A stretch of 64,000 nt of DNA, taken from NCBI RefSeq assembly GCF_000738915.1, contig NW_026515636.1:149175-213174 (forward strand), given 5' to 3'. The notes beneath the pieces were generated by a model. It searched no databases. It was not told the origin of the DNA and saw nothing but the letters and a program-made list of their open reading frames with translations. The stretch comes from Nematocida ausubeli. Lineage: Eukaryota. Made by a program: the position numbers and the translations under genes. Positions 40,344 to 41,162 of this stretch are shown piece after piece; positions within the stretch are counted from its first letter, which is position 1; every line of letters begins with the position of its first letter.

Positions 40344-41162
40344 ATGGAGAGATTTCTTAGAAAGGAACTTTTAGGATACGGAACATATTCAATGGTAAGT
40401 TAAAGCGTCTAACATAAGGTATATGAAGGATATGATACAATTGAGAACACTAAAGTTGCATTAAAAATAATCAAACTATCAGAGGAAGAAGGAATGCCAA
40501 ACACTGCACTAAGGGAAATATCCATAATGAAAGGACTATCCCACAGAAATATTCTTTCAATACACAGCATACTGCATAGTGAGACAGAGCTAATAATAGT
40601 TCTGTCATACATAGAGACTGATCTAAAAAAGCTGCTGCTCTCAGGGCAGGCAATAAATGCAAAGTATCTTGTGAAACAGTTAGTAGAAGGTGTTGCATAC
40701 CTGCACAGTCAACAAATCATCCATCGGGACTTGAAGCCGCAGAATATCTTGGTAGACAAGGATGAGTGCTTGAAGATAGCAGATTTCGGGCTTGCCAGGA
40801 GTCTTGAAATAAAAATGCCATCGTATTCATCTGAGGTGGTGACTCTGTGGTACAGGTCCCCCGAGCTGCTCAAGGGTTCGAAAGTGTACGGGTACTCGAT
40901 TGATATTTGGAGTGTAGGCTGCATCATAAGTGAAATACTAACAGGAGTAGCACTTTTCTCAGGAAGCGACAAGCCAGATCAGATTGTCAGAATATCCCGG
41001 TATCTTGATATGCAGGCAACCGCCCAGATGGAGTACTTGCTGAAGCTTCACTCCGCTCACGACCCAATGTATGCAGGCCTTATATTTGAATGCTTGAAGG
41101 AAGTGCCAGAGAAAAGGATCACTGCGCATGAAGCACTAAACTATTTGAGCCAAATAGAGTAG
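40344..41162 (+). CDS. PHO85-like cyclin-dependent kinase, two exons join(40344..40394,40419..41162), 264 aa
   Basis: The spliced product reads MERFLRKELLGYGTYSM|VYEGYDTIENTKVALKIIKLSEEEGMPNTALRE, followed by HRDLKPQN, DFGLAR and YSSEVVTLWYRSP. Confidence 0.92.
40395..40418 (+). other. 24-nt spliceosomal intron
   Basis: GTAAGTTAAAGCGTCTAACATAAG: GTAAGT donor, CTAAC branch site, AAG acceptor and an in-frame TAA. Removing it restores the GxGxYxxV loop. Confidence 0.92.

Follow-up and report, generated by a model that had tools for sequence, protein, structure and literature searches.

The closest described counterparts of the feature reported here are the short introns of the microsporidia Encephalitozoon cuniculi and Vavraia culicis, which measure 22-76 nt in E. 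cuniculi and mostly 22-25 nt in V. culicis (Grisdale 2013 PMC3629993; Desjardins 2015 PMC4435813; Whelan 2019 PMC6349667). These introns have GT-AG ends, bring in a stop codon if retained and occur with spliced and retained forms side by side. Most are poorly spliced. For E. cuniculi, 30 of 37 introns fall below 50% splicing, and the passage giving this figure records the authors' view that there is little support for regulation; for V. culicis, a passage of Desjardins 2015 (PMC4435813) gives a median splicing of 25.3%. A further passage of that paper describes the region near the 3' site as constrained to 3 bp, a measure that it does not define.

Nematocida, in contrast, is a genus reported to be without introns. 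In the passages that touch on the subject, Cuomo 2012 found no introns, no spliced mRNA and no U2 or U6 in three genomes, N. ausubeli included; Wadi and Reinke 2020 restated the loss of splicing; Lim 2021 gave N. parisii as intronless; Whelan 2019 (PMC6349667) did not find long introns in Nematocida; and a small-GTPase survey stated that none of these genes has introns in Eumicrosporea. A first-pass annotation of the DNA studied here stated that Nematocida has been described as lacking introns and spliceosome, which matches these published passages; its taxon guess is likewise supported by the protein matches, which point to N. ausubeli. Searched by term, Black 2023, Zarsky 2023, Wadi 2023 and two other papers returned no passage on Nematocida introns, and splicing in the genus was not reported in any title or abstract opening found in a search lying mostly outside subscription journals. 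A precedent for late discovery exists in Pseudoloma neurophilia, a microsporidian first called intron-lacking in which an intron was later found (Whelan 2019 PMC6349667). As that passage describes it, the Pseudoloma intron is long, conserved and predicted from position and sequence, whereas the N. ausubeli intron is 24 nt long and contigs lacking it exist.

We analysed a 64,000-nucleotide stretch of DNA (the window) from N. ausubeli, a parasite of worms, in which a hidden 24-nt intron had been proposed inside the glycine-rich loop of a CDK. Donor, CTAAC motif, acceptor and reading frame were all found as claimed. The intron occupies 40395-40418 on the forward strand in phase 0, with the 5' splice site GTAAGT at 40395-40400, a predicted CTAAC branch motif at 40409-40413 and the 3' splice site AAG at 40416-40418, where the deletion in the contigs described below also ends. 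Three nucleotides separate CTAAC from the AG. The 6-nt distance to the acceptor end that had been assigned to the branch point holds for the branch A at 40412, but the CTAAC motif itself is followed by 5 nt. Likewise, an in-frame TAA is present within the insert as described, although there are two (40401-40403 and 40410-40412) rather than one. Translated from the ATG at 40344, the unspliced frame is closed by the first of these after 19 aa, the product length that had been given. At 24 nt, the insert lies within the size class of short microsporidian U2-type introns (about 22-30 nt), and as an intron it is of the ordinary microsporidian type. Its setting is different: it sits in a kinase loop at codon 17, not directly behind the start codon of a ribosomal protein gene, the type known from E. 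cuniculi and V. culicis. A 24-nt gap can be placed here in four equivalent ways, and GT-AG ends appear in 40395-40418 alone. Eight GT-AG cuts in the region restore the frame, and only this one runs the loop straight into VYEG as in orthologues. There was no sign of a tandem duplication or second copy of the insert (best nearby agreement 12 of 24; one match at three or fewer mismatches).

Judged by its sequence, the interrupted gene is the Pho85/CDK5 kinase of N. ausubeli: its top named protein matches are Pho85/CDK5 proteins, with up to 84% identity to N. parisii. Exon 1 (40344-40394, +) holds 17 codons, which supply the initiator ATG and the greater part of the glycine-rich loop; its product is identical to N. 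parisii residues 1-17 at 13 of 17 positions and similar at all 17. Exon 2 (40419-41162, +) adds 247 codons and the stop at 41160-41162, and contains the VALK lysine, the PNTALRE helix, HRD and DFG. Only after splicing is the set of glycine-rich loop, VAxK lysine, PSTAIRE-like helix, HRD and DFG complete. The spliced product is 264 aa long, the same length as Nematocida Pho85/CDK5 kinases, which in relatives with a contiguous loop measure 264-270 aa. The annotated 222-aa ORF, in comparison, matches the Pfam Pkinase profile only from position 43 of 263. Public annotations open at an internal ATG (40494) and so drop the first 42 residues. The ATG at 40344 follows a T-run, as do those of many other genes in the window, and the ATG at 40494 stands in a purine-rich context; two out-of-frame ATGs come before it. 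The N. ausubeli cluster consists of six protein entries and three sequences (222, 222 and 198 aa; the window's own protein is taken as one sequence only), all of which begin at the internal ATG, and no full-length N. ausubeli protein was among the protein matches returned. The 198-aa ERTm2 entry P0122 also has a different, shorter C-terminus, a hint of a frameshift or a sequencing mistake close to that end. The codon differences listed for exon 2 are nearly always synonymous (in 10 of 10 cases for sample S1 and 8 of 9 for X5), which argues against the gene being a pseudogene under relaxed selection.

We next asked how readily such a signal would arise by chance. From base composition, a given insert would carry donor, branch motif and AG together with a probability of about 2e-7. 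Across the window, the bare motif has 2 donors where shuffled sequences average 0.42 (P=0.075) and is, alone, not rare enough to be more than modest evidence. A tighter motif, its pattern picked after the intron had been seen, gives 2 matches against a mean of 0.10. The strength against chance comes from finding the three signals, all in order, within an insert that is delimited by homology. Under the strict motif, no site in the window other than 40395-40418 yields a longer ORF when removed. A second perfect intron-like motif at 7354-7388 (+) was taken as chance, as it falls on the antisense strand of a 405-aa ORF and opens up no reading frame; a match at 31789, which overlaps the stop of a histone gene, was rejected. 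The 405-aa ORF itself (6816-8033, -) has no Pfam match and begins with a cysteine/histidine pattern resembling a zinc ribbon.

Eight public sequencing runs hold part of the stretch, and four of them (X1-X4) have a listed contig that reaches the intron. X1-X4 all carry the same sample label and the same study label. They consist of contigs, not reads, their RNA origin is a guess, and no DNA run matches them. The X2 contig (40361-41205) and the X3 contig (40346-40888) each lack 24 nt at place 40394, equal to the intron, with 34 and 49 nt, respectively, on the short side. Contigs without exactly 40395-40418 therefore exist, as the intron reading predicts, and two of the four informative contigs, of guessed RNA origin and under a single sample label, show the exact 24-nt loss that removal in RNA would produce. 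The X1 and X4 contigs retain the insert with 27 nt of exon 1, below the 31-nt bridging rule at the 5' junction. Both begin at 40368, the first 31-mer that separates the short from the long form, and this fork suggests that the short form is also present in these two runs. Of the remaining runs, X5 holds a small share of the stretch and stops short of the intron, X6 and X7 begin downstream, and no X8 piece lies over the intron among the pieces listed.

Several properties of the contigs bear on their origin. Those listed track gene extents (for example 29061-29461, 29570-30250 and 44961-46192), and contigs of five runs end at 41197-41214, past the kinase stop. There is no contig cover between genes or over a 974-aa ORF, and depth differs about 100-fold in adjoining genes; this fits RNA, and we did not count it as evidence. 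X1-X4 differ from the window by about 1%. Among the contigs listed, no multi-base gap other than the 24-nt one occurs between 27700 and 47600. The covered parts of both ribosomal protein genes are likewise free of multi-base gaps among these contigs, in agreement with the earlier statement that neither gene has an intron.

What, other than splicing, could produce two forms differing by exactly these bases? One possibility is a relic intron in a lineage that has lost splicing, with the shorter contigs representing an intronless allele, in a heterozygous or mixed sample, that supplies the kinase. Two haplotypes are indeed found in the runs near 40493-40509, the runs come without a DNA control, sibling species are intronless, and the published machinery is sparse. 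We nonetheless regard such an allele as unlikely, since all three N. ausubeli-cluster sequences are truncated with no full-length protein returned, and the splice signals are intact next to a conserved exon 1. In addition, both haplotypes are seen with the short form and one of them with the long form, a weak argument given that the markers are at least 75 nt away, beyond 31-mer phasing. It is more improbable still that the deletion arose when reverse transcriptase switched template, or during assembly, at the 4 nt of GGTA micro-homology that the junction offers as 1+3 nt, in a gene that is dead or yields a truncated product. Such an origin would suit evidence made up of contigs only, but it sits poorly with a short form that won the assembly in two of four runs, in a region without notable structure (z = +1.17) where the lost segment has GT-AG ends and a branch motif and where codon changes are nearly all synonymous.

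Removal could also proceed without a spliceosome, through Ire1-type or tRNA-endonuclease cleavage and ligation, or the ribosome could bypass the insert. A tRNA intron endonuclease subunit is encoded in the window, the published spliceosome is very incomplete, and Ire1-type introns are similar in size to the 24-nt insert. Against Ire1-type removal, there are no stable stem-loops at the junctions, where folding is weaker than in shuffled sequences (again z = +1.17). Ribosome bypass would leave contigs at full length, and all three spliceosomal signals stand in the expected order; we consider these routes the least probable of those weighed.

Splicing remains the reading that we prefer. We estimate at about 85% the probability that 40395-40418 is a 24-nt GT-AG intron removed from part of the transcripts by a U2-type spliceosome of the organism itself, probably one that is very reduced. 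What we observed are the signals for splicing, the two stops, the 264-aa frame recovered by the cut and the contigs with and without exactly these bases. If the contigs are mRNA, as we take them to be, Prp8 together with an undetected, divergent U2/U5/U6 set would use GTAAGT and the branch A at 40412. Splicing would be partial, leaving spliced and retained transcripts together, and a working kinase would come from the spliced message only, because translation of the retained form ends after 19 aa and initiation at the internal ATG yields a protein without the ATP-binding loop and the VALK lysine. Both elements are necessary for a working kinase. The first-pass annotation had gone further and suggested that intron retention acts as an on/off switch. 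This suggestion is unsupported: coexisting spliced and retained forms are the normal inefficient state of microsporidian introns, and retention is better read as inefficiency because the introns of E. cuniculi and V. culicis are mostly poorly spliced.

We then considered which parts of a spliceosome N. ausubeli is known to possess. Supplementary Data 1 of Desjardins 2015 (PMC4435813) lists 10 of 89 splicing components for the N. ausubeli strain ERTm2, namely Prp8, Brr2, SmB, Snu13, Prp43, Cbc2, LSm2, LSm4, LSm5 and LSm7, in contrast to 17-31 in splicing microsporidia. Absent from the table are Hsh155/SF3b1 and other U2 proteins, Prp2/16/22 and Cef1, and a single Sm protein is listed (Desjardins 2015 PMC4435813). 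Prp8 is not listed for the other three non-splicing species, E. aedis, E. bieneusi and V. corneae (Desjardins 2015 PMC4435813), and a passage of the Amphiamblys paper counts the lack of Sf3b1 and Prp8 in favour of intron loss. The retention of Prp8 (NERG_00520) favours splicing, and the missing SF3b1 either counts against splicing or points to strong divergence. No snRNA was found in the 64-kb window. Directly upstream of the kinase lies an Sm/LSm gene (39976-40185, +), possibly a spliceosome part, which matches the Pfam LSM profile; its best PDB matches are SmF at 5e-6 and LSm6 at 4e-5, and one source calls a cluster member snRNP F. A homolog search with its product returned no relative outside its own cluster, and neither SmF nor LSm6 appears in the Desjardins table for Nematocida. 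An LSm5-like gene was recognized by sequence match at 50316-50528 (+).

The window contains other genes of note. The CCCH protein encoded here is CPSF30/Yth1-like, and a 789-aa superfamily 1 helicase (56122-58491, +) matches best with Sen1 and then with Upf1, giving nothing firm on decay of the retained form. When each is read from its first ATG, a cyclin ORF (47137-48156, -) and a V-ATPase H ORF (+) share 94 nt (48063-48156) in a head-to-head arrangement; the start assigned to the cyclin may be too early. Just outside the cyclin ORF, at 47113, all four runs of one contig comparison have one extra T, reflecting a strain difference or an assembly error. Two tRNA genes lie at 5597-5670 and 19409-19490 (+), and the second overlaps the first ATG (19485) of a DUF5094 ORF, a start that is probably wrong. 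Two similar hydrophobic ORFs in tandem (42362-43156 and 43544-44332, +) have no Pfam match and probably belong to a lineage-specific membrane protein family.

We also compared the intron position among orthologues. The loop is contiguous, with no intron, in eight named relatives (N. parisii, ERTm5, N. minor, N. major, N. homosporus, AWRm77, AWRm80 and LUAm3). Prodigal has no intron model, and relatives called with it are for this reason taken as intronless. Passages on gene calling state that Prodigal was used for the Wadi 2023 genomes and for ERTm1 (Cuomo 2012). In a tree of the kinases, truncated starts, which are only a proxy for the intron, mark 7 of the 20 rows of the Nematocida clade, counting the row of the window itself; they are scattered among full-length ones and include N. 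displodere (NEDG_01758). One Nematocida-clade protein opens with ANVK directly before VYEG; this leader is unrelated, stops at the same residue and could be encoded by CTAAC...AAG. A metagenome scan gave 80 generic kinase loci at 52% identity or less and no Nematocida DNA; the 21 loop matches listed from metagenome kinases had no intron at the same site and no fungal Pho85 helix motif. A profile search contributed no further information about the intron.

Fungal Pho85 proteins were compared as well. Among 22 fungal Pho85-like matches, 11 have a contiguous loop, 4 carry an unrelated leader ending in Q before V[FY]KG, 2 pass straight from LEK to VYKG, 1 has an earlier break and 4 begin at the valine or beyond it. 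Eighteen further cluster members include none with the loop: 7 have an unrelated leader (5 with Q, 2 with K), 1 starts at the valine and 10 start later. In all 11 proteins with an unrelated leader, the residue before V[FY]KG is Q or K, as expected of a CAG or AAG acceptor. Filamentous-fungal Pho85 genes thus probably have a phase-0 intron at the same codon, as read from protein starts among cluster members that are related to one another. An old fungal position lost by the siblings is more likely than a new gain. An ancient intron implies several parallel losses in Nematocida, and the alternative is a recent gain at a site of G followed by GT; a working spliceosome is required by both. More tentatively, and with the odds somewhat against it, the Nematocida spliceosome may be among the smallest known, consisting of Prp8, Brr2, Prp43, a partial Sm ring and snRNAs diverged beyond recognition, with no recognizable SF3b, Prp19 complex or Prp2/16/22. 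It might persist to serve a few hidden mini-introns, among them an ancient fungal PHO85 intron that the genus has been losing repeatedly.

Passages in the literature describe Nematocida as the main laboratory model for microsporidia and count it among roughly three lineages of the group that lost splicing independently. The intron described here is real as a sequence feature and very likely spliced; its novelty is as evidence of splicing in a lineage filed as splicing-free and with few recognizable spliceosome parts. One spliced intron, if true, would remove the Nematocida case of loss for at least N. ausubeli and would make this species a test bed for the minimal spliceosome. Hidden introns would be predicted in N. 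parisii as well, which keeps Prp8 yet lacks this intron. Finally, annotation blind to introns has truncated a cell-cycle-type kinase.
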